Part shown: positions 4,042 through 14,744 of the stretch, in pieces | Numbering within the stretch: position 1 is the stretch's first letter | How the letters are laid out: each line of letters starts with the position of its first letter | Origin: a virus | Taxonomy: Duplodnaviria; Heunggongvirae; Uroviricota; Caudoviricetes | DNA: 15,547 nt | Virus record (IMG/VR): IMGVR_UViG_2648501392_000008 | Reading direction: 5' to 3' (one strand) | Program-made: the position numbers and the translations under genes | Notes under the pieces: model-generated | What the model saw: the letters and a program-made list of their open reading frames with translations, nothing else | Told to the model about the DNA's origin: nothing | The model's database searches: none

Positions 4042-4626
4042 GTGGGTAAAGAACCTGAATGGAAAGTTGATAAACAACCAGCATGGCTGGTGGCAGCAAT
4101 ACGAAGAACGATTGCTGATTTACCTCATGGCTATGAGGAAGCAGCAGAAATTCTTGGTTTGTATAAATCTGATGATATCACCCCAGCAAAAGATCAATTG
4201 CATAACAGACTGCGTAGCGGTGGGGATCAAATTTTTCCACTTGAGTGGGCCATGGTTTTACAGGATGCCAGTGGTACCAGGCATGTAACAGATGCAATAG
4301 CCCGTCGTAGTAATGGGGTGTTTGTGCCGCTGGTGGTCATTGATGACATTGACAATGGTGACATTAATCAGCGGCTGATGGAGTCAATAGAATGGATTGG
4401 CAAGCATTCCCAGTACTTACGCAAGGCAACTGCTGATGGAGTTATTGACCAGGCTGAGCGTGAGCAAATCGAAGAGAACAGCTACCAAGTAATGGCGAAG
4501 TGGCAGGAGCATTTAACACTGTTATTTCGTGTTTTTTGTGCGCCGGAAAAGAGTAACGCCCGCGAGTGTGCAGCTCCGGGCGTCGTGGCGTCGATTGCTT
4601 CTGGTTGTGGAGAAACTAACGCATGA
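4042..4626 (+). CDS. CII-like / YdaT-like prophage regulatory protein
   Basis: GTG start with GAGGA SD 7 nt upstream; position immediately after the Cro/YdaS-like gene; product loosely resembles YdaT / phage-186-CII-type proteins (recalled, not searched). Confidence 0.5.
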   Translation: MGKEPEWKVDKQPAWLVAAIRRTIADLPHGYEEAAEILGLYKSDDITPAKDQLHNRLRSGGDQIFPLEWAMVLQDASGTRHVTDAIARRSNGVFVPLVVIDDIDNGDINQRLMESIEWIGKHSQYLRKATADGVIDQAEREQIEENSYQVMAKWQEHLTLLFRVFCAPEKSNARECAAPGVVASIASGCGETNA

Positions 4627-5783
4627 ATAGTTTAACGGCAAATAACCGTTTGTCGCAACAGCTGGTGGTCAGCGTCGCTGAACACCTGTTGTTACGGCAT
4701 GAATGCAGATTACCAAATCACCTGGCTGTAAGTAACCACAGAGAACTTTACCTGACTGTGGGGGGCGAGTTGTGCAGGAACTTAACCGCTGGTTTCGTGA
4801 CGGAAGAGGGCTTTATGTCCATGTTATTCGTTGGGAGCCAGAAACACAGCGCGTTATCTATCTTCGCAAAGACTACCCGCATGAGTGCTTTAGTCCTTTG
4901 TGGAAATTCAGGCGTGATTTTGTTGAGTGTGAAGGACCACCAGCATATTGATTCTGCAATTCCGGGACGTTACACTGCTCAGGCACCTTATAAAGCGGGT
5001 GCCGGGATTGGCGTCCTGAAATTGTCAACGGCGATGTATGACGCGCCAGCGTCTTTTTTATCGTCCGCATTTGCTCACATCCAGATTATGGTGGGCTGGG
5101 CGGGGGCACCGAAAGGTGCGCCGGTCTCCGTTGACGCCGGTTACGCCAACCCCGTCCAGTTCACCACCAGTGAAATTGGCGTTTCCGGTGGTGGAAGTTT
5201 TTCACTGTCAACGGAGGCTGCCATCATGGCTACGATCCCAGCCCTCACTCAACCTGAAATCACCATTGACAACGGCCAGGCCGTTACCACTTCTTTGGCT
5301 GTTGCCAACTTCTTCTCCAAGCGTCACGACGATGTGCTGAAAAAGATCCGCACTCTGGATTGTTCCCCAGAGTTTTGTGCCCGCAATTTTGCGGAGACAT
5401 CGATTTCGGTAAATCAACCGAACGGTGGTACACGCAAGCTCCCTTGCTATCAAATCACACGAGACGGTTTTGCGTTTCTTGCTATGGGTTTCACGGGTAA
5501 ACGTGCTGCCCGGTTCAAAGAGGCATACATAAATGCCTTTAACCAGATGGAGAAACAGCTTTCAAAGCCCGCTGTACCGAGCGACGTTGCACATAACGCC
5601 AGCGTTCTCTGTTCCTACATTTCATCAATTCATCAGGTCTGGCTGCAGCAGCTTTATCCTATGTTGGCAAAAGCCGAATCTCCGCTGGCTGTTAGCTTAT
5701 ATGACTATATTAATGATGCTTCGGCGCTGGCCAGTCTCATAAATTTGTCGCTGAACCCTTCAGAGGTAAGGGGGCGCAAATGA
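4623..5783 (+). CDS. Rha-domain phage regulatory protein with a roughly 200-aa N-terminal region of unknown function
   Basis: ATGA overlap with the upstream stop. Residues about 210-310 (QAVTTSLAVANFFSKRHDDVLKKIRTL...ITRDGFAFLAMGFTGKRAARFKEAYINAFNQME) match the Rha/pRha domain. An internal ATG at 5226 with GGAGG upstream could also initiate a standalone Rha protein. Confidence 0.55.
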   Translation: MNSLTANNRLSQQLVVSVAEHLLLRHECRLPNHLAVSNHRELYLTVGGELCRNLTAGFVTEEGFMSMLFVGSQKHSALSIFAKTTRMSALVLCGNSGVILLSVKDHQHIDSAIPGRYTAQAPYKAGAGIGVLKLSTAMYDAPASFLSSAFAHIQIMVGWAGAPKGAPVSVDAGYANPVQFTTSEIGVSGGGSFSLSTEAAIMATIPALTQPEITIDNGQAVTTSLAVANFFSKRHDDVLKKIRTLDCSPEFCARNFAETSISVNQPNGGTRKLPCYQITRDGFAFLAMGFTGKRAARFKEAYINAFNQMEKQLSKPAVPSDVAHNASVLCSYISSIHQVWLQQLYPMLAKAESPLAVSLYDYINDASALASLINLSLNPSEVRGRK

Positions 5784-6004
5784 TCCGGAATATTTTCAAA
5801 CGGTTTACCAATCATACTTTCCGTTGTCCTCGTCCGGGTCAGTGGTACACCACGCCTGCTGGGCATGTTCTACGTGTTAGCCTGGTTGACCGTGAATGTC
5901 AGAAGGTGGTTTGTGAACCGCTGGGCCGTAATTACCGCGTCAGTATGCCGCTTATAGCCTTTTGCTCCGGAAAAATGTTTAAGCGTCTGGGAGGTGTGGC
6001 GTGA
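5780..6004 (+). CDS. Hypothetical small protein (74 aa, several Cys)
   Basis: ATGA overlap with the Rha gene stop; AGGGGG SD 6 nt upstream. Confidence 0.4.
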   Translation: MIRNIFKRFTNHTFRCPRPGQWYTTPAGHVLRVSLVDRECQKVVCEPLGRNYRVSMPLIAFCSGKMFKRLGGVA

Positions 6005-6300
6005 ACTGTTTTCAGTTTGTGTGCGGATGTGCTTTCGATAACCCGATTCAGCGCCTAATTATGTTGCGTGTTTTGATGTCGGGTTCTTCAGACGGTGAAG
6101 GCGAGAGAGTTATTGATCATCAGGTGCTTGCTGATTTCTGCTGTTGTTCTAAGCAAGCGATATTCAGGGAAACCCTGGCACTGGAAAGAGCTGGTTATCT
6201 TCATATCCGAAAAATTGCAACGCTTACTATTGATGCAAAAGCCAGACTACAACCTGCGCGTGGCTACACAATTCTCATGCTGCGGAAGGAGGTTGTATGA
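6001..6300 (+). CDS. Hypothetical winged-helix-like DNA-binding protein (99 aa), possibly replication-associated
   Basis: GTG start overlapping the upstream stop (GTGA) with GGGAGGTG SD; LADFCCCSKQAIFRETLALERAGYLHIRK looks like a wHTH recognition region. Assignment is weak. Confidence 0.4.
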   Translation: MNCFQFVCGCAFDNPIQRLIMLRVLMSGSSDGEGERVIDHQVLADFCCCSKQAIFRETLALERAGYLHIRKIATLTIDAKARLQPARGYTILMLRKEVV

Positions 6301-7304
6301 GCCGTTACGCCCCCACACCGGAAGTTATGGCTATTGGTCAAATTAATATTTCCGGCAATGTTACACCTGCGACCTGGTGGAAATATATTCGACTACCCAG
6401 TGGGCGTCCGGATGCGACGGCTATCGCTCTGCTTTCAGAGATCGTTTACTGGTACCGCCCGACAGAGGTCAGGGATGAGCACACCGGAGCGTTGCTGGGA
6501 TATCGCAAGCGTTTTCAGGGCGACAAACTGCAAAGAAGCTACCAGGCGTTTGCTGAGCAGTTTGGTTTCGGGAAAAGGGAAACCGCAGATGCGCTGAAGC
6601 GTCTGCGCGATGCAGGGTTTATTACTCTGGATTTACGCACGGTGGAAATGCTCGATGGGGTGAAATGCAGCAATATTTTGTTTGTCGGGATCAACCCACA
6701 GGCAATTGCGGCCATCACCACACCTTCTTCTGTTTCGCCAGAAAGTAACAGCAATAATGCAATCAGCGATACAGCTATTACGTTAAAACGGAACACCCCC
6801 CGACGTCATAACGGAACAGGGGATACGCCGAATGTTGATACAAATACAGAGATTACTACAGAGATTACTACAGAGATTACTACAGAGATTACAACGGAGA
6901 CTAAAAACACTATTGGCGCATCCGCTGACGCGTCTGCACCAGCGCGTTCTGCCAGACAGGAATATTCACCGGAATTTGAACAGGCCTGGCAGGAATATCC
7001 CAAACGTGCTGGTGGTAATTCAAAATCCGCCGCTTTTAAAGCCTGGAAAGCCCGAATCAGGGAAGGTGTGACACCCGAAACCATGCTCGACGGTGTGAAA
7101 CGCTATGCCGCCTGGGTGCGTGTCTCTGGAAATACCGGTACCCAGTTCGTGAAGCAGGCGTCGACGTTCTTTGGTCCGGATCGTCATTTCGAAGAATCCT
7201 GGGAAGTTCCTGCGGTATCTGCAGCCAGACGCGAGGACCCGTACTTCAAAGCCAGTTACGACAACGTGGACTACAGCCAGATCCCGGAAGGATTCAGGGG
7301 GTGA
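6297..7304 (+). CDS. Phage replication initiation protein (lambda O-like / replisome organiser) with origin iterons inside the gene
   Basis: GGAAGGAGG SD before ATG 6297; N-terminal wHTH-like region; C-terminal EFEQAWQEYPKRAGGNSKSAAFKAWKARI motif typical of enterobacterial prophage replication proteins; 12-bp iterons within the coding sequence. Confidence 0.7.
   Translation: MSRYAPTPEVMAIGQINISGNVTPATWWKYIRLPSGRPDATAIALLSEIVYWYRPTEVRDEHTGALLGYRKRFQGDKLQRSYQAFAEQFGFGKRETADALKRLRDAGFITLDLRTVEMLDGVKCSNILFVGINPQAIAAITTPSSVSPESNSNNAISDTAITLKRNTPRRHNGTGDTPNVDTNTEITTEITTEITTEITTETKNTIGASADASAPARSARQEYSPEFEQAWQEYPKRAGGNSKSAAFKAWKARIREGVTPETMLDGVKRYAAWVRVSGNTGTQFVKQASTFFGPDRHFEESWEVPAVSAARREDPYFKASYDNVDYSQIPEGFRG
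6846..6893. repeat. Iteron array: 4 tandem copies of 12-bp acagagattact (candidate phage replication origin)
   Basis: Direct tandem repeats at 6846-6857, 6858-6869, 6870-6881 and 6882-6893 (last copy 1 mismatch), encoding TEIT repeats in the O-like protein. Confidence 0.7.
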
Positions 7305-7306
7305 TC

Positions 7307-7399
7307 ATGAGTCTTTTGAATGAAGTTCAGAAATTCATTGAAGCCCATCCGGGGTGTACTTCCGGAGACATTGCGGATGCTTTTTACGTGGGGGCTTAA
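7307..7399 (+). CDS. Possible small ORF (30 aa) translationally coupled between the replication gene and the Dam gene
   Basis: ATG at 7307 with GGGGG 6 nt upstream; stop TAA overlaps the Dam ATG (TAATG). Too short for the ORF track; no homology evidence. Confidence 0.3.
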   Translation: MSLLNEVQKFIEAHPGCTSGDIADAFYVGA

Positions 7400-8052
7400 T
7401 GAGTAATAAATATTGCCAGGCGCTGGTAGAACTGCGGAACAAACCAGCCCATGAACTGAAGGAAGTGGGCGATCAGTGGCGCACGCCGGACAACATTTTC
7501 TGGGGAATTAACACCTTGTTTGGTCCGTTTGTTCTGGATCTGTTCACTGACGGTGATAACGCCAAATGTGCCGCGTATTACACGGCGGAAGACAACGCGC
7601 TGGCGCATGACTGGTCAGAACGTCTTGCGGAGCTTAAAGGTGCTGCCTTTGGTAATCCCCCATACAGCCGCGCCAGTCAGCATGAGGGGCAATACATCAC
7701 CGGCATGCGTTACATCATGAAACATGCCAGTGCCATGCGTGATAAGGGCGGGCGCTATGTTTTCCTGATCAAAGCGGCCACCAGCGAAGTGTGGTGGCCG
7801 GAAGATGCAGATCATATTGCTTTTATTCGCGGGCGTATTGGTTTTGAACTGCCAGCCTGGTTTATCCCGAAAGACGAAAAGCAGGTGCCAACAGGTGCTT
7901 TCTTCGCTGGTGCTATTGCTGTTTTCGACAAGACCTGGAAGGGAGCGGCAATCAGCTACATCGGGCGCGATGAACTTGAGGCATGTGGTGAGGCGTTTCT
8001 GGCGCAGGTTCGCCAGCAGGCGGAAAAACTGGTCAGGGAGATGGCGGCATGA
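7399..8052 (+). CDS. Phage Dam-type N6-adenine DNA methyltransferase
   Basis: WRTPDNIF...LDLFTDGDNAKCAAYYTAEDNALAHDW...AFGNPPYS: the NPPY catalytic motif and flanking pattern are characteristic of the phage Dam family. ATG 7399 is preferred to the GTG at 7354 because of the SD. Confidence 0.85.
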   Translation: MSNKYCQALVELRNKPAHELKEVGDQWRTPDNIFWGINTLFGPFVLDLFTDGDNAKCAAYYTAEDNALAHDWSERLAELKGAAFGNPPYSRASQHEGQYITGMRYIMKHASAMRDKGGRYVFLIKAATSEVWWPEDADHIAFIRGRIGFELPAWFIPKDEKQVPTGAFFAGAIAVFDKTWKGAAISYIGRDELEACGEAFLAQVRQQAEKLVREMAA

Positions 8053-8375
8053 CGACATTAACTCAATGCCAGCAGCAGGTGCTGGATATGCTGATTTCTT
8101 ATCAGAAAGAACGTGGCTTCCCGCCAACCAATCAGGAGGTGGCAACCATGCTGGGATACCGTTCGGTGAATGCAGCGGTGGAGCATCTTCGCGCACTGGA
8201 GAAAAAAGGTGTCATCACGATAAAGCGTGGCGTGGCCCGGGGTATCACTCTTCATACCGCGGTGAAGGACGACGACAGCGAGGCGGTCGGGATTATCCGC
8301 GCCCTGCTTGCCGGTGAGGCAAACGCCAGGCTGCGTGCAGCCCACTGGTTACATGAGAGGGGCCTGAAAGTATGA
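8049..8375 (+). CDS. LexA N-terminal DNA-binding-domain protein lacking the S24 peptidase domain
   Basis: MTTLTQCQQQVLDMLISYQKERGFPPTNQEVATMLGYRSVNAAVEHLRALEKKGVITIKRGVARGI aligns by eye with the LexA N-terminus (LTARQQEVFDLI...[36 protein letters not shown], recalled); only 108 aa, with no Ser/Lys peptidase region. Confidence 0.7.
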   Translation: MTTLTQCQQQVLDMLISYQKERGFPPTNQEVATMLGYRSVNAAVEHLRALEKKGVITIKRGVARGITLHTAVKDDDSEAVGIIRALLAGEANARLRAAHWLHERGLKV

Positions 8376-8767
8376 AGCTAATACTGCCTTTTCCGCCCAG
8401 CGTGAACACGTACTGGCGACACCCCAACAAAGGGGCGTTTGCTGGTAAGAGCCTGATAAGCGCGGCGGGGCGAAAATTCCAGAGCGCGGCGTGTGCAGCA
8501 ATAGTTGAGCAGTTACGTCGTCTGCCGAAACCAACGTCGGCACCTGCTTCAGTGGAGATCGTGTTGTTTCCTCCGGATAACCGGATCCGCGATCTGGACA
8601 ACTATAACAAGGCGCTGTTTGACGCCCTGACCCACGCGGGTGTGTGGGAAGACGACAGACAGGTGAAAAGAATGCTGGTGGAGTGGGGACCGGTTATCCC
8701 GGAGGGGAAGGTCGAGATCACTATCAGTAAGTACGAAAAAGCGAGTTGCAAATTAGCAACTCGGTAA
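8372..8767 (+). CDS. rusA: RusA Holliday-junction resolvase
   Basis: LPFPPSVNTYWRH...RDLDNYNKALFDALTHAGVWEDDRQV matches RusA conserved blocks; ATGA coupling with the upstream gene. Confidence 0.85.
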   Translation: MKLILPFPPSVNTYWRHPNKGAFAGKSLISAAGRKFQSAACAAIVEQLRRLPKPTSAPASVEIVLFPPDNRIRDLDNYNKALFDALTHAGVWEDDRQVKRMLVEWGPVIPEGKVEITISKYEKASCKLATR

Positions 8768-8929
8768 CGGAATTGAGCAACACCCTAAATTTGGGTATTA
8801 CCTCGTTAAAGATACTGTATTTATGAACAGTGTATCCTTGATAACTATTAAAAATCGCAGTAAGTTCATCCTGCATCAACGAAAAGGGAGTGCAGTCCCG
8901 CTCGTGGATAAAAATTTGTGGAGAAACCA

Positions 8930-9745
8930 ATGAATCAGTTGCTTGTAATTGATGGCGTTTCTGTGCGCCAGTACTTCGAATCTAACTACTGTCTTAACGA
9001 CCTTCAGAAAGCTGCTCTTCTTGCCGCTGGTGAGAATCGCTCCTCCCGTTCGCTGGAAGTTCACGAGTTTATGCGTCGTCCTGAAACGAAGGCTCTTGTG
9101 GAATTATTGGAAGAAGAAACTACGGGAGATTCCCGTAGTATTCCTGTCATCACCATTCAGGGGCGCAATGGTGGGACGTATGTCTGTAAAGAGCTGGTCT
9201 ATGCATATGCAATGTGGATCAGCCCGGCATTCAGCTTAAAAGTGATACGTACTTTTGATGCGCTTCATAATTCATCACCAGAAGAAACCACATCCGACAA
9301 AATTAAATCCGGGGTCATTCTGCTTGAATCAGCAGCAAAGACTCTAAATCTGTCAAACTCCTCGAAACTTGGTGCATACCAGAAATTATCAAAGGTAGCT
9401 GGTCTTCCTGAACTTATGCCGATCTATGCCATTGATGCACCTGCTGATGCGCCAGATGGTTCAAGCCGCCCTACGCTGTCGCTGAGTGCACTGCTGAAGC
9501 AGTATGGTATCCGCCTGACGGCTAATCAGGCATATCACCAGATGGCGAAGCTGGGGATCGTTGAACAACGCGAACGATACAGCCGTACCGCGATTAACAA
9601 CATCAAAAAATTCTGGTCGCTGACAGCGAAAGGTTGCATGTTCGGCAAGAACATCACCAGTCCCGCAAATCCGCGCGAGACGCAGCCGCATTTCTTCGAA
9701 TCCCGATTCCCTGAGCTGTTAAAGCTGCTCGATACCGTTCATTGA
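8930..9745 (+). CDS. KilA-N domain protein (antirepressor-like)
   Basis: ATG 8930 with GGAG SD; the N-terminal region (IDGVSVRQYF...IQGRNGGTYVCKELVYAYAMWISPAFSLKVIRTF) is a KilA-N fold signature; the C-terminal half resembles antirepressor C-terminal regions. Confidence 0.7.
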   Translation: MNQLLVIDGVSVRQYFESNYCLNDLQKAALLAAGENRSSRSLEVHEFMRRPETKALVELLEEETTGDSRSIPVITIQGRNGGTYVCKELVYAYAMWISPAFSLKVIRTFDALHNSSPEETTSDKIKSGVILLESAAKTLNLSNSSKLGAYQKLSKVAGLPELMPIYAIDAPADAPDGSSRPTLSLSALLKQYGIRLTANQAYHQMAKLGIVEQRERYSRTAINNIKKFWSLTAKGCMFGKNITSPANPRETQPHFFESRFPELLKLLDTVH

Positions 9746-9746
9746 G

Positions 9747-10742
9747 GTGACCGTGAGAGCACTACTGACCCCTGAAATTGCCCCGCGTATGGGGATCGTA
9801 TTGTTCAGACCCGGTTCAGAGCTGATGCCCCTGTTTATGCAGGGGCGTGTCCTGCTGGAGCCTGAGCCGGAACGTTATTCATCTTTTGCCAGTGGTGCCG
9901 TTCCGGCAGCATCACAACCGCTGGCGGATGATCCTGCCGTTCGGGTCGTGTTCCGCAATGAGGCAGTGATCCGTCGTGCTGGTGGCGTGGAATGTCTTGA
10001 AAGCTGGTTACTTCGTGAAAAAGGTTGCCAGTGGCCTCATTCCGACTGGCACAGCGAGAACATGACCACAATGCGACACGCGCCGGGCGCAATCCGTCTG
10101 TGCTGGCACTGCGATAACCAGCTGCGCGATCAGTTCACGGAACGGCTGGAATCAATGGCAACGGATAACTGTGCCCGCTGGGTGTTGTCTGTTGTGCGTC
10201 GGGATCTCGGTTTTGATGACAGTCACGTTGTGACAATGCCGGAACTGTGCTGGTGGCTGGTTCGTAATGATCTGGCGGATGCCTTACCGGAAAGTGCAGC
10301 CCGTAAGGCACTGAGATTACCGAAGCCTGTTGTGCCGTCTGTCACCCGGGAGAGTGACCTTGTGCCTTCGGTTCCGGCCACCAGCATCATCCAGAATAAA
10401 GCGAAAAAGGTGCTGGCGCTGAAAGTGGATCCGGAGTCGCCGGAGTCTTTTATGTTACGCCCAAAACGTCGCCGCTGGGTTAACGAAAAGTACACGCGCT
10501 GGGTTAAGACGCAGCCGTGTGCATGTTGTGGAAAGCCTGCTGATGATCCCCACCACCTGATAGGCCACGGTCAGGGGGGAATGGGTACAAAAGCGCATGA
10601 CCTCTTCGTGCTGCCTTTGTGCAGAAAGCATCACGACGAGCTGCATGCGGATACCGTGGCATTTGAAGAGAAGTATGGCTCCCAGCTGGAGCTGATATTT
10701 CGTTTTATCGATCGTGCGCTGGCAATAGGCGTGCTGGCCTGA
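9747..10742 (+). CDS. DUF968-family prophage protein (YdfU-like) with a C-terminal Cys/His HNH-like motif
   Basis: C-terminal CACCGKPADDPHHLIGHGQGG...LCRKHHDELH; position between KilA-N/RusA and Q is typical. Start uncertain (GTG 9747 or GTG 9753 with a GAGGTG SD). Confidence 0.6.
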   Translation: MTVRALLTPEIAPRMGIVLFRPGSELMPLFMQGRVLLEPEPERYSSFASGAVPAASQPLADDPAVRVVFRNEAVIRRAGGVECLESWLLREKGCQWPHSDWHSENMTTMRHAPGAIRLCWHCDNQLRDQFTERLESMATDNCARWVLSVVRRDLGFDDSHVVTMPELCWWLVRNDLADALPESAARKALRLPKPVVPSVTRESDLVPSVPATSIIQNKAKKVLALKVDPESPESFMLRPKRRRWVNEKYTRWVKTQPCACCGKPADDPHHLIGHGQGGMGTKAHDLFVLPLCRKHHDELHADTVAFEEKYGSQLELIFRFIDRALAIGVLA

Positions 10743-10759
10743 TTTTGTGGAGAAAGTTG

Positions 10760-11131
10760 ATGCGTGATATTCAAATGGTTCTTGAACGTTGGGGGGCATG
10801 GGTGGCAAATAATCACGAGGATGTGGAATGGTCATCTGTTGCTGCAGGTTTTAAGGGATTAATTCCTTCGAAAGTAAAATCCCGCCCGCAATGTAGCGAT
10901 GACGATGGCCTGATCATTAGCTCTGCGATGACAGTTCTTAAGAAAAAGGAACCGTATCAATACGAATTACTGGAAATGTATTATGTGTATGGGGTTACAT
11001 TACGGGTGTTGGGGGTAAAACTGGGGATATCACTTAATCAGGTTGTTATCAGACTGCAGAAAGCTGAAGGGTTTATTGACGGTTGTCTGGCAATGTTGGG
11101 GGTATCTTTAGAAATTGATTGTTACATATAG
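10760..11131 (+). CDS. Late-gene antiterminator Q (QuuD/phage-21 type)
   Basis: ATG 10760 with GGAGAAAG SD; the N-terminus MRDIQMVLERWGAWVANNHEDVEWSS matches the recalled N-terminus of DLP12 QuuD. Confidence 0.8.
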   Translation: MRDIQMVLERWGAWVANNHEDVEWSSVAAGFKGLIPSKVKSRPQCSDDDGLIISSAMTVLKKKEPYQYELLEMYYVYGVTLRVLGVKLGISLNQVVIRLQKAEGFIDGCLAMLGVSLEIDCYI

Positions 11132-11168
11132 TAATAAATTCAATCAAAGTAAATAATCATATTTTATT

Positions 11169-11205
11169 ATAACCTCCTGATGATACCTGTTCATTGGGAG
11201 GTTAT
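11169..11205 (+). promoter_or_regulatory. 9-bp inverted repeat (ataacctcc ... ggaggttat) that would sequester the SD of the downstream 205-aa gene
   Basis: Perfect 9-bp arms at 11169-11177 and 11197-11205 with a 19-nt loop; the right arm contains GGAGG 5 nt before ATG 11207. Confidence 0.35.
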
Positions 11206-11206
11206 T

Positions 11207-11824
11207 ATGGATAAAAATGTAGAGCATGTATTAGTTGATGCAATTGAAAATAAGCAATCTTTAACAGTCGTTTACTTAGGAGGGAGCCAGCCCGGAACAT
11301 TAAGGAATATTTCTCCGATTAGTATAAATGGGGATAAATTGCGGGCAAGATGCCATAGTTCTGGAGCAGTAAAGGTTTTCAATCTTGGGAAAATACAGTT
11401 ACCCAGTGACTCCTGCGCGGTATCTATGCACTATGGAGATTTAGAAGTTAAAGCTTATGAGACGATGCAGAGCGTAAATGACAACTTTCATGCCCTTTAT
11501 CCTGAAGGACGATGGGGTGTTGATTTTAATGAGCATCGCTTTGCTTTATTTGATTTTTTTAAAAACGGGAAACGAAAAAAAACGGCATTTATGGCAATTG
11601 AGTTCAGGGAAAGAGATGAAGAGAAAATAATAACAGGTGTAACAATTGATATTGGTATATCTGGAACAGTGATTTCTGAGAAGTCCCGAATCCCAAAAAG
11701 ACGACCATGGGTAGTGGTTGGTCCCGAACACGGAGAATACAGTACTTATTCAACTTTGGACAAGGCTGCTACAGCGTTTTTTGAGAGGCTTTCGTTGATA
11801 GCATCCGGCCTGGAAGATAATTGA
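11207..11824 (+). CDS. Uncharacterised cargo (moron) protein, 205 aa, with a WYL-like N-terminal region
   Basis: Strong SD (GGGAGG) before ATG 11207; AT-rich codon usage unlike the flanking phage genes; followed by an intrinsic terminator. The N-terminal block SLTVVYLGGSQPGTLRNISPISINGDKLRARCHSSGAVKVFNLGKI fits the WYL-domain pattern by eye. No other domain recognised. Confidence 0.55.
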   Translation: MDKNVEHVLVDAIENKQSLTVVYLGGSQPGTLRNISPISINGDKLRARCHSSGAVKVFNLGKIQLPSDSCAVSMHYGDLEVKAYETMQSVNDNFHALYPEGRWGVDFNEHRFALFDFFKNGKRKKTAFMAIEFRERDEEKIITGVTIDIGISGTVISEKSRIPKRRPWVVVGPEHGEYSTYSTLDKAATAFFERLSLIASGLEDN

Positions 11825-11953
11825 TTTTATGTTTGGTATTCAGAGTTCGCCGTGCTTAAGAAAGTCAAGATTCTAAAAATACTGAATGAGCTACTTGTGT
11901 TATAACAAAAATGCTATTAGTGTGTTAAGAGTGGTTACTTCGCCACACAACTT

Positions 11954-11978
11954 AAACCCGCCACTGAGCGGGTTTTTT
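11954..11978 (+). terminator. Rho-independent terminator after the 205-aa gene
   Basis: aaacccgc-cactga-gcgggttttttg: 5-8 bp GC stem, 6-nt loop, 6-T run. Confidence 0.7.
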
Positions 11979-12076
11979 GTACCTGTAAACTTGGTGCAGT
12001 ACAGTAAACACGCTGGTGGTCGTGAATACTGACTTTTTATCTTGCTGGCTTTTTAGACAAGAGTTATTGGTATGTC

Positions 12077-12298
12077 ATGTTAACCAGAAGGGAAAAAGAC
12101 ATGCTAAAACAGCAAGATATGACCGAAACCGCCAGAGTGGTGTTTAATGAATTGAGCGTCACCGAACCGGCGACAGTCGGGGAGATTGCGCAGAATACTT
12201 ACCTTTCACGCGAACGCTGCCAGTTAATACTGACCCAGCTGGTTATGGCGGGTCTGGCAGACTATCAGTTCGGTTGTTACAGACGCCTTCCGCAGTGA
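12077..12298 (+). CDS. Small putative winged-helix/HTH DNA-binding protein (73 aa; alternative start at 12101)
   Basis: ORF ending inside an intrinsic terminator; ATVGEIAQNTYLSRERCQLILTQLVMAGLADY resembles a wHTH recognition region. Best SD (AGAAGGGA) precedes the ATG at 12101. Confidence 0.45.
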   Translation: MLTRREKDMLKQQDMTETARVVFNELSVTEPATVGEIAQNTYLSRERCQLILTQLVMAGLADYQFGCYRRLPQ

Positions 12299-12308
12299 AG
12301 GCTTTTTT
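12285..12308 (+). terminator. Rho-independent terminator overlapping the stop codon of the small HTH gene
   Basis: gccttc-cgcagt-gaaggc followed by tttttt; the TGA stop lies at the loop/stem junction. Confidence 0.65.
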
Positions 12309-12448
12309 ATTTGTGGTAAATGGGCGGTTGGTGGGTGTTAGGGGCACCCACCAGCCATCTGCTCATGCGTTGGGTTCACAAGCAAACCTCAGGCCCACTG
12401 CTTTGCGCAAAAGCAGAATGAGCCTATCAGAGACAGGCTTAATGATCC

Positions 12449-13525
12449 ATGCTTAATACTGTAAAAATATCCAGTTGTGAGTTAATCAACGCCGACTGCC
12501 TGGAATTTATCCGGTCGTTACCCGAAAATTCTGTTGACCTGATAGTCACGGACCCGCCGTACTTTAAAGTGAAGCCTGAGGGCTGGGATAACCAGTGGAA
12601 GGGCGACGATGATTACCTGAAGTGGCTGGACCAGTGTCTGGCGCAGTTCTGGCGGGTGCTGAAACCTGCCGGAAGTCTTTACCTGTTCTGTGGTCATCGC
12701 CTGGCATCTGATATCGAAATCATGATGCGTGAACGCTTCAGTGTGCTGAACCATATTATCTGGGCGAAGCCGTCCGGACGCTGGAACGGGTGCAACAAGG
12801 AAAGCCTGCGGGCGTATTTTCCGGCCACAGAACGCATTCTGTTCGCGGAACATTATCAGGGGCCGTATCGTCCGAAAGATGATGGCGATGAGGCGAAGGG
12901 CAGGGCACTGAAACAGCATGTGATGGCCCCGCTGATTTCTTACTTTCGTGATGCGCGTGCTGCTCTTGGGATAACGGCAAAACAGATTGCAGATGCCACA
13001 GGAAAGAAAAACATGGTGTCGCACTGGTTCAGTGCCAGTCAGTGGCAGCTACCGAACGAAAGCGATTATCTGAAATTACAGTCGCTGTTTGCCCGGGTGG
13101 CAGAAGAGAAACATCAGCGGGGAGAACTGGAAAAGTCCCATTACCAACTGGTCAGCACATACAGTGAGCTGAACCGGCAGTATATGGAACTGCTGAGTGA
13201 ATATAAAAATTTGCGGCGGTATTTCGGTGTGACGGTGCAGGTGCCGTACACCGATGTGTGGACGCATAAACCGGTGCAGTACTATCCAGGGAAACATCCG
13301 TGCGAAAAACCGGCAGAAATGCTGCGGCAGATAATCTGCGCGAGCAGTCGTCCGGGTGACCTGGTGGCGGATTTTTTCATGGGTTCTGGCTCAACCATAA
13401 AAGCAGCTATGGCGCTCGGGCGTCGTGCAACTGGTGTTGAACTGGAGGCAGAACGTTTTGCGCAGACCGTTAAGGAGATTAGTCACATCCTTACATGCTC
13501 AATTGATGACGGGAAGGATGGATAA
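12449..13525 (+). CDS. Beta-class N6-adenine/N4-cytosine DNA methyltransferase (YhdJ-like), apparently an orphan
   Basis: SVDLIVTDPPYF (motif IV) at the N-terminus and DLVADFFMGSGSTIKAAMALGRRATGVE (motif I, FxGxG) near the C-terminus, i.e. the beta-class permuted order as in E. coli YhdJ. No restriction endonuclease gene is adjacent. Confidence 0.85.
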   Translation: MLNTVKISSCELINADCLEFIRSLPENSVDLIVTDPPYFKVKPEGWDNQWKGDDDYLKWLDQCLAQFWRVLKPAGSLYLFCGHRLASDIEIMMRERFSVLNHIIWAKPSGRWNGCNKESLRAYFPATERILFAEHYQGPYRPKDDGDEAKGRALKQHVMAPLISYFRDARAALGITAKQIADATGKKNMVSHWFSASQWQLPNESDYLKLQSLFARVAEEKHQRGELEKSHYQLVSTYSELNRQYMELLSEYKNLRRYFGVTVQVPYTDVWTHKPVQYYPGKHPCEKPAEMLRQIICASSRPGDLVADFFMGSGSTIKAAMALGRRATGVELEAERFAQTVKEISHILTCSIDDGKDG

Positions 13526-14744
13526 AGATATGGTCAGTTCAGGCTGTGAAGCAAGTAGACAGATAAGGCTGCAATAAAAACTGACAATAGTAAAATAGCT
13601 TTTTCCCAGGTAGTCATGAATACGATCTCTTAAAGCGCCCGCTGATACCAGCGGGCAATACATACTGGCATTAATGTTAAGTTCAGGGATAATTCATCGT
13701 ATTTTGTGGTACGACGCTATCAATATTAATAAACAGTATTTTTCATGTAAAATTTCTGTTTTTTTGATCTGATTCTCGTTTCCTGGGTTATGATGTTGTT
13801 GTGAACCATGCTGTTGAATGATAATGTTCGGGTATAAAATTGTTGCTGATATGTAGCGCAGTGAGCGGGTGGTATTTCTGTTGCTGAGTGTACGGATACA
13901 GTGCTTCCCTCCCTCAGCGGGGGGCAGGTGTGCTGTGGTTTTAGAGACACCGGAAACGAGAATGATGCGGGTTTGCTGGTGCCGGGATAGAGTCGCCGGA
14001 GGTCATGACATAGAGCAAAAAAGGAATGTGCATGCAAATACACACCTCTTCGGAGAGCTCTTCTTTATATGGATGAGCCTCAAGGTCAATAGTTTATCTG
14101 TTATGTATTCATATGTTGTTACTTATATAATCCATACGGGCATATCATCAGTACACACATACTATTATGGCATTTTATTTTTGTTTTAACTGAATTCCCG
14201 GGGCACTCTTTTTGATTTCTGATAAGGAACCAGAATTTTCTGTTAAATGGTGTCACGTTGTAAATGGTTAATGGAAGCAGCTTATTATCCATAATCACAC
14301 CTGAGTTAACAGGTGTGAGAATACTTCCGGGTGGCAGGAACACATCTGACTGATACCAGATTATCAACTTTATTTTACACCATACAGTTGAAAACGTTAT
14401 TCCGCTTGATGGGCATATCACTGTGTCAATAACTATCCATTCCATCTTTTAACCTTCTCGGTACACATTGCTTTCGATTGTTTTGCTAAAAATCATAGTC
14501 AATAAATCAGTGTAACTCATTGATAAAGATCGTTTTCTTTGTCTTCCTGGGGTTTTCTTTTCTAATTTTGTATCACTTTGGTTCAAGTTGTTTCATTTTT
14601 TGTAATACAAATTAGCAGGATGAGCGGGAATATAAAAAAATCGGATGTTTTTGTAATGGATATTATTTTTTGTAAAATAATGTATTTTTATTTAAATCTC
14701 TATCAGAAAAGAATTTATTGTTCCTTTATATGGTGGAAAAGGTC

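Follow-up and report, generated by a model that had tools for sequence, protein, structure and literature searches.

What does a lambdoid prophage gain from a methyltransferase gene placed behind two terminators, and how is such a gene controlled? The question is raised by a 15,547-nucleotide stretch of Caudoviricetes DNA (IMG/VR record IMGVR_UViG_2648501392_000008; the whole stretch is henceforth referred to as the window, and coordinates refer to it unless another locus is named). The window represents the early-to-late region of a lambdoid Escherichia coli prophage and carries, towards its 3' end, a small putative regulator gene followed by a DNA methyltransferase gene. An initial annotation, made from the sequence alone, had described the two as a terminator-isolated helix-turn-helix gene and an orphan "YhdJ-like" methyltransferase, and had likened them to a controller-protein unit without a nuclease. 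The elements it listed are all where it had placed them, i.e. open reading frames (ORFs) at 12077-12298 (73 aa) and 12449-13525 (358 aa), a terminator, a 150-nt leader, a hairpin and a palindrome; their interpretation has changed in several respects. We consider it likely that the locus serves a lambdoid prophage as an anti-restriction module of the late operon and is held silent in the lysogen by controls at several levels. The segment between 12.0 and 13.8 kb is a very common prophage cassette: of the 5426 complete E. coli genomes compared by megablast, about 3000 contain it.

The identity of the methyltransferase is central to this reading.

12449..13525, + strand: M.EcoGII-family beta-class N6-adenine DNA methyltransferase, 358 aa (PF01555, E = 1e-42; phrog_67 and phrog_6025, DNA methyltransferase)

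Judged by its sequence, the gene is an orthologue of M.EcoGII, a known enzyme. The two proteins share 324 of 350 residues (~93%, 2 gaps) over their full length, recognition domain included; the M.EcoGII sequence was machine-read, with some errors, from the PDF of PMC11551740 (Supplementary Table S1), and some of the differences are evident reading errors, so that the true identity is probably slightly higher. The C-terminal tail of the window protein differs and is nine residues longer (358 aa against 349 in M.EcoGII). As had been noted, the enzyme belongs to the beta class (PF01555, DPPY followed by FxGxG), with DPPY at residues 35-38 in the N-terminal part, FMGSGS at about 309-314 in the C-terminal part and the PF01555 match over residues 29-340; what had been taken for a "long insertion" between motifs IV and I is the ordinary beta-class target-recognition domain. 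The label "YhdJ-like" holds at the level of the beta class only, and is better replaced by membership of the M.EcoGII orthologues: the protein scores 111.7 bits against the YhdJ equivalog model (NCBIfam PRK11524), whose cut-off is 292, and aligns with it over the catalytic halves only. YhdJ itself, an orphan beta-class adenine methyltransferase of E. coli that shares Pfam family and motif order with the window enzyme, is chromosomal and sequence-specific. Among solved structures only generic beta-class methyltransferases (RsrI, CcrM) were matched, again over the catalytic halves, and no structure of M.EcoGII was found; PADLOC likewise returned only generic or type II methyltransferase models. 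Neither the ORFs neighbouring the gene in the window nor the adjacent genes of related loci with annotation or Pfam listed contain a nuclease domain, in agreement with its description as an orphan. Its location as cargo, 3' of Q and 5' of the lysis genes, is likewise borne out. Copies in Stx2-converting phages are 86-91% identical to the window protein.

M.EcoGII and M.EcoGI come from E. coli O104:H4 C227-11, where they are prophage-borne like the window enzyme, with the same beta-class motif order and recognition domain. Adenines in every dinucleotide context are substrates of M.EcoGII, which modifies up to 99% of them in vitro and blocks many restriction enzymes; it is prophage-encoded, unexpressed in the lysogen and harmful under constitutive expression (PMC5778455, PMC12707154), and neither it nor M.EcoGI leaves a methylation signal in its host (PMC5778455). 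Its recognition domain has been modelled as a four-helix bundle, the catalytic domain comprising residues 1-134 and 260-349, and reconstructed ancestors of its clade were active on both DNA and RNA (PMC11551740). The family has been called very large, with members in Stx and other enterobacterial phages (PMC5778455). Non-specificity, lysogen silence and toxicity are thus properties that we take from the literature on the orthologue. Because of this orthology there is a strong case that the window enzyme should methylate adenine in essentially any sequence context, and a search for its target motif, as initially proposed, would be expected to show adenine methylation in nearly every context. 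Labels such as "YhdJ-like" or "site-specific DNA-methyltransferase" on genes of the M.EcoGII type are therefore misleading, and methylome studies should expect no motif.

If the enzyme is harmful to the cell, it would have to be silenced in the lysogen, and the position of the gene points to how this could be achieved.

10745..11131, + strand: Q antiterminator gene of the QuuD/PF06530 type (PF06530, E = 1.5e-47)
11885..11930, + strand: presumed late promoter pR' and Q-loading region (ttgtgt-N17-tagtgt, then gTTAAGAGTGG)
11955..11984, + strand: first intrinsic terminator, tR'-like (cccgc-cactga-gcggg, then T6; -13.8 kcal/mol, z = -4.0)
12285..12312, + strand: second intrinsic terminator, T1 (stem 12285-12290/12297-12302, then T6-A-T3; -8.9 kcal/mol)

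Relatives from Escherichia, Salmonella and Klebsiella carry the pair after Q and ahead of the lysis genes, behind a terminator, in the slot that holds the stx genes in Stx phages. An Stx2a phage carries the 65-aa gene (see below) and the methylase between Q and ileZ-argN-argO-stx2AB, directly upstream of these; in Klebsiella and Salmonella prophages the pair sits between Q and holin, and E. coli strain 219 has the order Q, 205-aa ORF, small gene and methylase, then directly essD-rrrD. The Q proteins of these loci belong to three Pfam families (PF06530, PF06323, DUF1133). The sequence 5' of the first terminator varies with the Q family and the module is conserved from just past this terminator, homology with other prophages starting at ~12002; a terminator is found at the position of 11955..11984 in nearly all related loci, with differing stems. 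Furthermore, 11923-11977 has a homologue ~120 nt upstream of the holin gene essD in prophage DLP12 of K-12. From the gene order, the upstream change linked to Q type and the DLP12 homology, we infer that pR' and its terminator lie at ~11885-11984 and that the module belongs to the Q-dependent late transcript. The TGTTAAGAGTGG motif recurs in some loci only, including one (L002) whose Q is annotated simply as antitermination protein Q. We propose Q as the trans-acting switch for all genes 3' of it, a late-transcript logic that also controls the stx genes (PMC7547250); as in the pR'-tR' late leader of Stx and other lambdoid phages, the module follows directly 3' of a presumed constitutive-promoter/terminator leader, in the stx slot.

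T1 overlaps the end of the small gene, whose stop codon (TGA, 12296-12298) lies inside the hairpin, and five of its six stem pairs show compensatory changes across genera. The stop codon has the same position in the aligned Enterobacteriaceae-type loci; Proteus and Morganella loci lack the hairpin. Because of this overlap, a ribosome finishing the small gene could disturb termination at T1 and so couple its own translation to read-through into the methylase leader. The small gene is indeed bracketed by terminators, as first described. These lie 3' of the presumed Q-dependent late promoter region, and we take them for silencers that Q bypasses and not for permanent insulation.

In the Sakai Sp5 prophage of E. 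coli (L003), only a decayed stretch at 2031-2213, corresponding to the last ~65 residues of the methylase family (42% identity), remains between Q and ileZ, upstream of stx2, and the rest of the module is missing, which suggests that the module was lost from this Stx2a phage lineage. We also considered StxS as the identity of the element and rejected it, Sakai Sp5 being without the module; a StxS homologue is not present in the window module. A tRNA gene directly follows the methylase in a Klebsiella-type prophage (L004, 5384-5456), comparable to ileZ-argN-argO after the methylase in Stx2 phages.

A further level of control may reside in the spacer between the two genes, which folds into a conserved RNA structure.

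12310..12454, + strand: conserved structured 5' leader (covariance model R1; 116.7 bits, E = 2e-23 in the window)
12320..12366, + strand: helix P1, AUGGGCG 12320-12326 with UGCUCAU 12360-12366, enclosing the hairpin 12326-12356
12326-12337/12345-12356, + strand: hairpin, 12 pairs including one G-U
12373..12448, + strand: long-range helix P2, GGUUCA 12373-12378 with UGAUCC 12443-12448 and AAGC 12380-12383 with GCUU 12437-12440 (RNAalifold)
12392..12424, + strand: helix P3, irregular hairpin inside P2
12398-12416: palindrome ctgcttt-gcgca-aaagcag, the tip of P3

The spacer is exactly 150 nt long in the window (12299-12448) and 147-154 nt in most Enterobacteriaceae-type loci, and its sequence is conserved more strongly than the small gene that flanks it; in Xenorhabdus and Photorhabdus it is shorter, and a T-run follows the hairpin in several loci. 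The structure was derived with RNAalifold and refined manually, and the covariance model built on it gave one full-length + strand match per locus in 52 of 52 genome loci, always abutting the methyltransferase ATG. In the model-based alignment 94.8% of the cells at paired positions are standard pairs, compared with 31-41% when the partners are slid by 1-3 columns, and 11 pairs show compensatory changes (4.5 +/- 1.4 in shuffles, none of 500 as high); an independent MAFFT alignment gave 17 such pairs against 8.6 +/- 1.8. G-U pairs outnumber A-C pairs by 145 to 24, in keeping with an RNA of the methylase sense. The minimum free energy fold of the window leader alone (-62.8 kcal/mol, z = -4.2) has the same helices, P2 included, and the hairpin with its outer helix reaches -30.5 kcal/mol (z = -5.05; none of 200 shuffles as stable). 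The hairpin and the palindrome, initially presented as stand-alone features, are thus parts of one conserved structure. Against Rfam 15 the best leader match scored 16.3 bits (gathering threshold 36), and nothing reached threshold in the leaders of five related loci.

P2, four pairs of which show compensatory changes (e.g. AAG:CUU to GGA:UCC in Proteus and Morganella), ends one base before the methyltransferase AUG (12449), and this AUG lacks a Shine-Dalgarno sequence; for both reasons the start region should be poorly accessible if the predicted helix forms. The leader is modular: in loci without the small gene it is found complete, directly after a terminator. Two other candidates in this region were discarded, namely an ORF across the leader (TTG, 12274-12456), whose frame is broken by single-base indels between genera, and a local hairpin before the ATG (12421-12439) that occurs in the E. 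coli type only. No convincing match to an RfaH ops site, a boxA or a sigma-70 promoter was seen in the leader by eye.

The small gene is the third element of the module.

12050..12076, + strand: two-part block cTTGCTG-N12-AGAGTTATtgGTATGTCA (also CTTGCTG-N12-AGAGTTATCTGTATGTCA), upstream of the small gene
12101..12298, + strand: gene of a 65-aa winged-helix protein (phrog_331; "TrmB family transcriptional regulator" of NCBI)

Its existence is confirmed, with a different start and fold from those first assigned. An ATG at 12101, preceded by AAGGG (a good Shine-Dalgarno sequence), is present in almost all of ~70 related loci and is the RefSeq start, and the ATG at 12077 is not conserved among them, giving a product of 65 and not 73 aa. 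AlphaFold2 predicts a winged helix of three helices and a beta-hairpin (pLDDT 91). The sole Pfam match is a TrmB match below threshold, with no HTH_3/Xre, and PADLOC returned nothing convincing for this protein; across the Enterobacterales family the NCBI names are "TrmB family transcriptional regulator" or "DprA-like winged helix". The gene is under purifying selection (median pairwise dN/dS 0.19). Taking one genome per species, about 60 of 80 methyltransferase loci carry a homologue of the small gene immediately 5' of the methyltransferase, with identities as low as 38% in Xenorhabdus, Photorhabdus and Proteus, and among viral contigs with an E. coli-type winged-helix protein and enough downstream sequence, 66 of 68 have a full methylase downstream. 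The gene is a conserved partner of the methylase, and its product most probably regulates the module.

The resemblance to controller (C) protein units seen by the initial annotation did not survive this analysis. Such units share with the window a small gene of the helix-turn-helix class beside a methyltransferase, with a palindrome nearby. C proteins are, however, all-helical proteins of the Xre type; the C-boxes to which they bind precede their own gene, and their main effect is on the timing of the nuclease. The window protein is instead predicted to be a winged helix with three helices, the only clear dyad, i.e. the palindrome, follows the small gene, no clear C-box arrangement precedes it, and a nuclease is absent. 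What does lie upstream is the block at 12050-12076, kept in sequence and spacing from Escherichia to Proteus, the spacer between its two parts varying in sequence and fixed in length. It looks promoter-like in layout; a sigma-70 consensus scan made no call on it, with no acceptable -10, RNAalifold found no consensus structure in it, and it is not a tandem palindrome. Rfam likewise has no family for the stretch that precedes the small gene; STnc130 gave a match on the - strand that stays below threshold (30 bits, gathering threshold 55) and is essentially the terminator plus A-rich sequence. With T1 on its 3' side and a promoter-like block that fails the sigma-70 scan on its 5' side, the small gene recalls phage morons, which are typically bounded by terminators in this way, although a moron-type promoter is not demonstrable.

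Two side observations concern this gene family. Cysteines C40 and C59, one at the start of the recognition helix and the other in the wing, are invariant across the family and may form a redox or metal site. In five viral contigs (L107, L145, L171, L190 and L223) the winged-helix gene and P1 with the first hairpin are kept, and the rest of the leader and the methylase are exchanged for an AT-rich gene of a 237-aa AraC-family regulator (Pfam-checked in L171, 6696-7409), the recombination joint lying directly after helix P1.

Building on the sequence identity, gene order, terminators, RNA covariation, winged-helix fold and purifying selection found here, we propose the following scheme. In the lysogen, transcripts from the constitutive late promoter would end at the first terminator (11955-11984), and those reading through would end at the second (12285-12312). 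Any mRNA extending past both would be poorly translated, with P2 pairing the bases 5' of the AUG, and the absent Shine-Dalgarno sequence would limit translation of the methyltransferase intrinsically. Silence of the window gene in the lysogen is thus implied by two upstream terminators and a start that is predicted to be sequestered. On induction, Q would render RNA polymerase resistant to terminators, so that the small gene and the methylase would be transcribed together with the lysis and morphogenesis genes, and progeny DNA, heavily methylated at adenine, would be shielded from many of the restriction systems encountered in the next host. The conjectural components of this scheme are its dependence on Q, the sequestration of the translation start and whatever part the winged-helix protein may play; protection from host restriction is the best supported among the roles that had been suggested for the enzyme.

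The closest functional analogue of the module is com-mom of phage Mu. Mu Com opens an mRNA structure that occludes the start of mom. An equivalent start-occluding structure would be provided here by the predicted P2 (12437-12448), conserved with compensatory changes. In com-mom and in the com-like operons of Hia5, Hin1523 and Nme1821 a small gene likewise stands directly upstream of a broad-specificity DNA-modification gene; in these systems the modification gene is harmful, silent in the lysogen, expressed late and under strict Com-mediated control (PMC3299994, PMC12707154, PMC6483171), and in Mu-like prophages of Haemophilus and Neisseria non-specific adenine methylases replace mom 3' of com-like genes (PMC3299994, PMC12707154). 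There is nevertheless no homology. The window has a winged helix instead of a Cys4 zinc finger and a beta-class enzyme instead of Mom or a Hia5-type enzyme, it lies in a lambdoid Q-antiterminated operon and not behind a C-activated mom promoter as in Mu, and an intrinsic terminator separates its two genes. It is tempting, though on balance we think it unlikely, that the leader represents an undescribed class of cis-regulatory RNA gating translation of a toxic non-specific methyltransferase, with the 65-aa protein as its dedicated partner and a non-homologous analogue of Com, or with the leader itself responding to some other signal, e.g. a metabolite or the enzyme. If so, an enzyme in wide biotechnological use would have its natural on-switch here.

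Part of the conservation of the leader could also act at the level of DNA, where two kinds of features stand out.

12012..12019, + strand: exact Chi site, just inside the conserved module
12348-12355, - strand: exact Chi site, in an arm of the leader hairpin

Exact Chi sites (GCTGGTGG) occur 12 times in the 15.5-kb window (4086-12355), eight of them on the + strand; shuffled sequences give 0.5 on expectation, and none of 200 reached 12. Of 49 related leaders, 39 have an exact Chi site as the 5' arm of the hairpin; the + strand arm of the window has one mismatch. The palindrome at 12398-12416 is unexceptional as an isolated hairpin (-8.4 kcal/mol, z = -1.05), yet it is conserved across genera, and the centre of P3 is self-complementary in all variant types seen (GCGC, GTGCAC, GTCGAC, ACGCGT), a symmetry more readily explained by a dyad-symmetric DNA site or a kissing loop than by a simple hairpin loop.

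These features enter into several competing explanations. According to one, the winged-helix protein is a DNA-binding transcriptional regulator, controller-like or a moron repressor, made from its own promoter-like block, which binds 12398-12416 or the upstream block and holds off or times the methyltransferase. The terminator-bracketed gene, its two-part block of fixed spacing, the moron-like architecture, the tight linkage to the methyltransferase and a dyad that runs through the centre of every palindrome variant, which an RNA hairpin loop does not need, would all suit such a regulator. We regard it as possible, if rather doubtful, since the block fails the sigma-70 scan (its best -10 candidate lacks the T at -7), the leader shows no evident promoter on which an operator could act, the palindrome is unchanged in loci devoid of the winged-helix gene, and both homology to controller proteins and a nuclease are missing. 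Alternatively the protein could act as Com does while being unrelated to it, binding a leader hairpin in the late mRNA and opening P2 so that the methyltransferase is translated only upon late co-transcription. The gene layout matches that of com-mom and of the com-like genes before Hia5, Hin1523 and Nme1821 (PMC3299994, PMC6483171), and the predicted P2 sequesters a start region that has no Shine-Dalgarno sequence. On the other side, the protein has two invariant cysteines and not a Cys4 zinc finger, RNA binding by this protein is hypothetical, a terminator stands between the genes, and leaders with no winged-helix gene in cis are not relaxed in structure, so that this alternative seems unlikely to us. 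Less plausible still is that conservation of the spacer reflects only DNA-level elements, i.e. a Chi site in an inverted repeat and a protein-binding palindrome, with RNA structure as a by-product. The excess of Chi sites in the window, the exact Chi in most hairpin arms, the palindromic P3 centre and a first hairpin that moves independently of the remaining leader in recombinants speak for it. On the other hand, Proteus leaders lack Chi and keep the hairpin through compensatory changes, P1 and P2 covary (the arms of P2 being ~60 nt apart) in a way that local DNA dyads cannot explain, and G-U pairs are six times as frequent as A-C pairs, which points to a transcript of the + strand. Finally, the enzyme might be a sequence-specific YhdJ-like orphan serving epigenetic regulation, or the surviving modification half of a restriction system with its partner at another location. 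The protein belongs to the beta class (PF01555), has no adjacent nuclease and is placed by PADLOC in type II methyltransferase models, but we consider this highly improbable given ~93% identity, across the recognition domain, to a biochemically non-specific enzyme, a score far under the YhdJ equivalog cut-off, the lack of a methylation signal from M.EcoGI and M.EcoGII in their host (PMC5778455), and a fixed late-operon place behind terminators that is ill-suited to a housekeeping or epigenetic role in the lysogen.

The anti-restriction module that we favour has its own difficulties. For the window protein, non-specificity is an extrapolation based on an enzyme of 93% identity, and pR' is placed by position and partial homology. 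The compensatory changes in the leader come largely from the Proteus/Morganella clade and scattered sites, and the alignment was fitted to the proposed structure, so the covariation statistics overstate independence. The self-complementary P3 centre and the Chi site in the hairpin arm mean that part of the leader conservation may act on DNA and not on RNA. About a quarter of the methyltransferase loci have no winged-helix gene and an indistinguishable leader, which argues against an obligatory partnership in cis, and a few loci pair the winged-helix gene with another cargo gene; judging from these comparisons, the protein is apparently not strictly required in cis.

The enzyme itself is not new, and thousands of genomes contain the cassette in annotated form. 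M.EcoGII is sold commercially and serves as a tool in chromatin accessibility mapping, MadID and RNA methylation engineering, and its natural regulation has so far been guessed, the published view being that it is likely switched on at prophage excision. In the searchable literature we found no description of a late-operon position behind two terminators, a winged-helix partner or a covarying leader, and accounts of M.EcoGII make no mention of the winged-helix gene, the terminators or the structured leader; nor was anything found in it on the in vivo induction of M.EcoGII-type enzymes, and a paper on the pR' region of Stx prophages is silent on the methylase. The locus described here, with its fixed place in lambdoid late operons and its conserved accessory gene and leader, offers testable elements for silencing and subsequent anti-restriction deployment.

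The window carries a number of further genes.

7354-8052: Dam-family methyltransferase (PF05869, E = 7e-45)
9747-10742: DUF968 gene
11207-11824, + strand: 205-aa ORF, AT-rich (36-40% GC; phrog_8498, unknown function; sub-threshold WYL-domain matches)
14119-14445, - strand: iraM-family anti-adaptor gene (RpoS stabiliser), in an AT-rich island within the phage late region

The first of these is the other methyltransferase that the initial annotation had reported in the prophage, correctly as Dam-type. Placed 3' of Q and 5' of the presumed late promoter, the 205-aa ORF has the look of an inserted cargo gene; E. coli strain 219 carries it as well. The neighbours of the methyltransferase are the winged-helix gene, a 105-aa ORF (13726-14043) for which no matches were found, and iraM, which adjoins this ORF. 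A tRNA scan of the window found none. The window ends at the start of a gene that RefSeq annotates as a SASA-family esterase in a near-identical prophage, where holin and lysozyme come next. Converging on the 3' end of the methylase, an unannotated 27-aa hydrophobic ORF (MTTWEKAILLLSVFIAALSVYLLHSLN; 13534-13617, - strand) with a Shine-Dalgarno-like sequence directly follows a hairpin at 13637-13660; it is present in 3 of 292 loci examined and resembles small membrane or toxin peptides.

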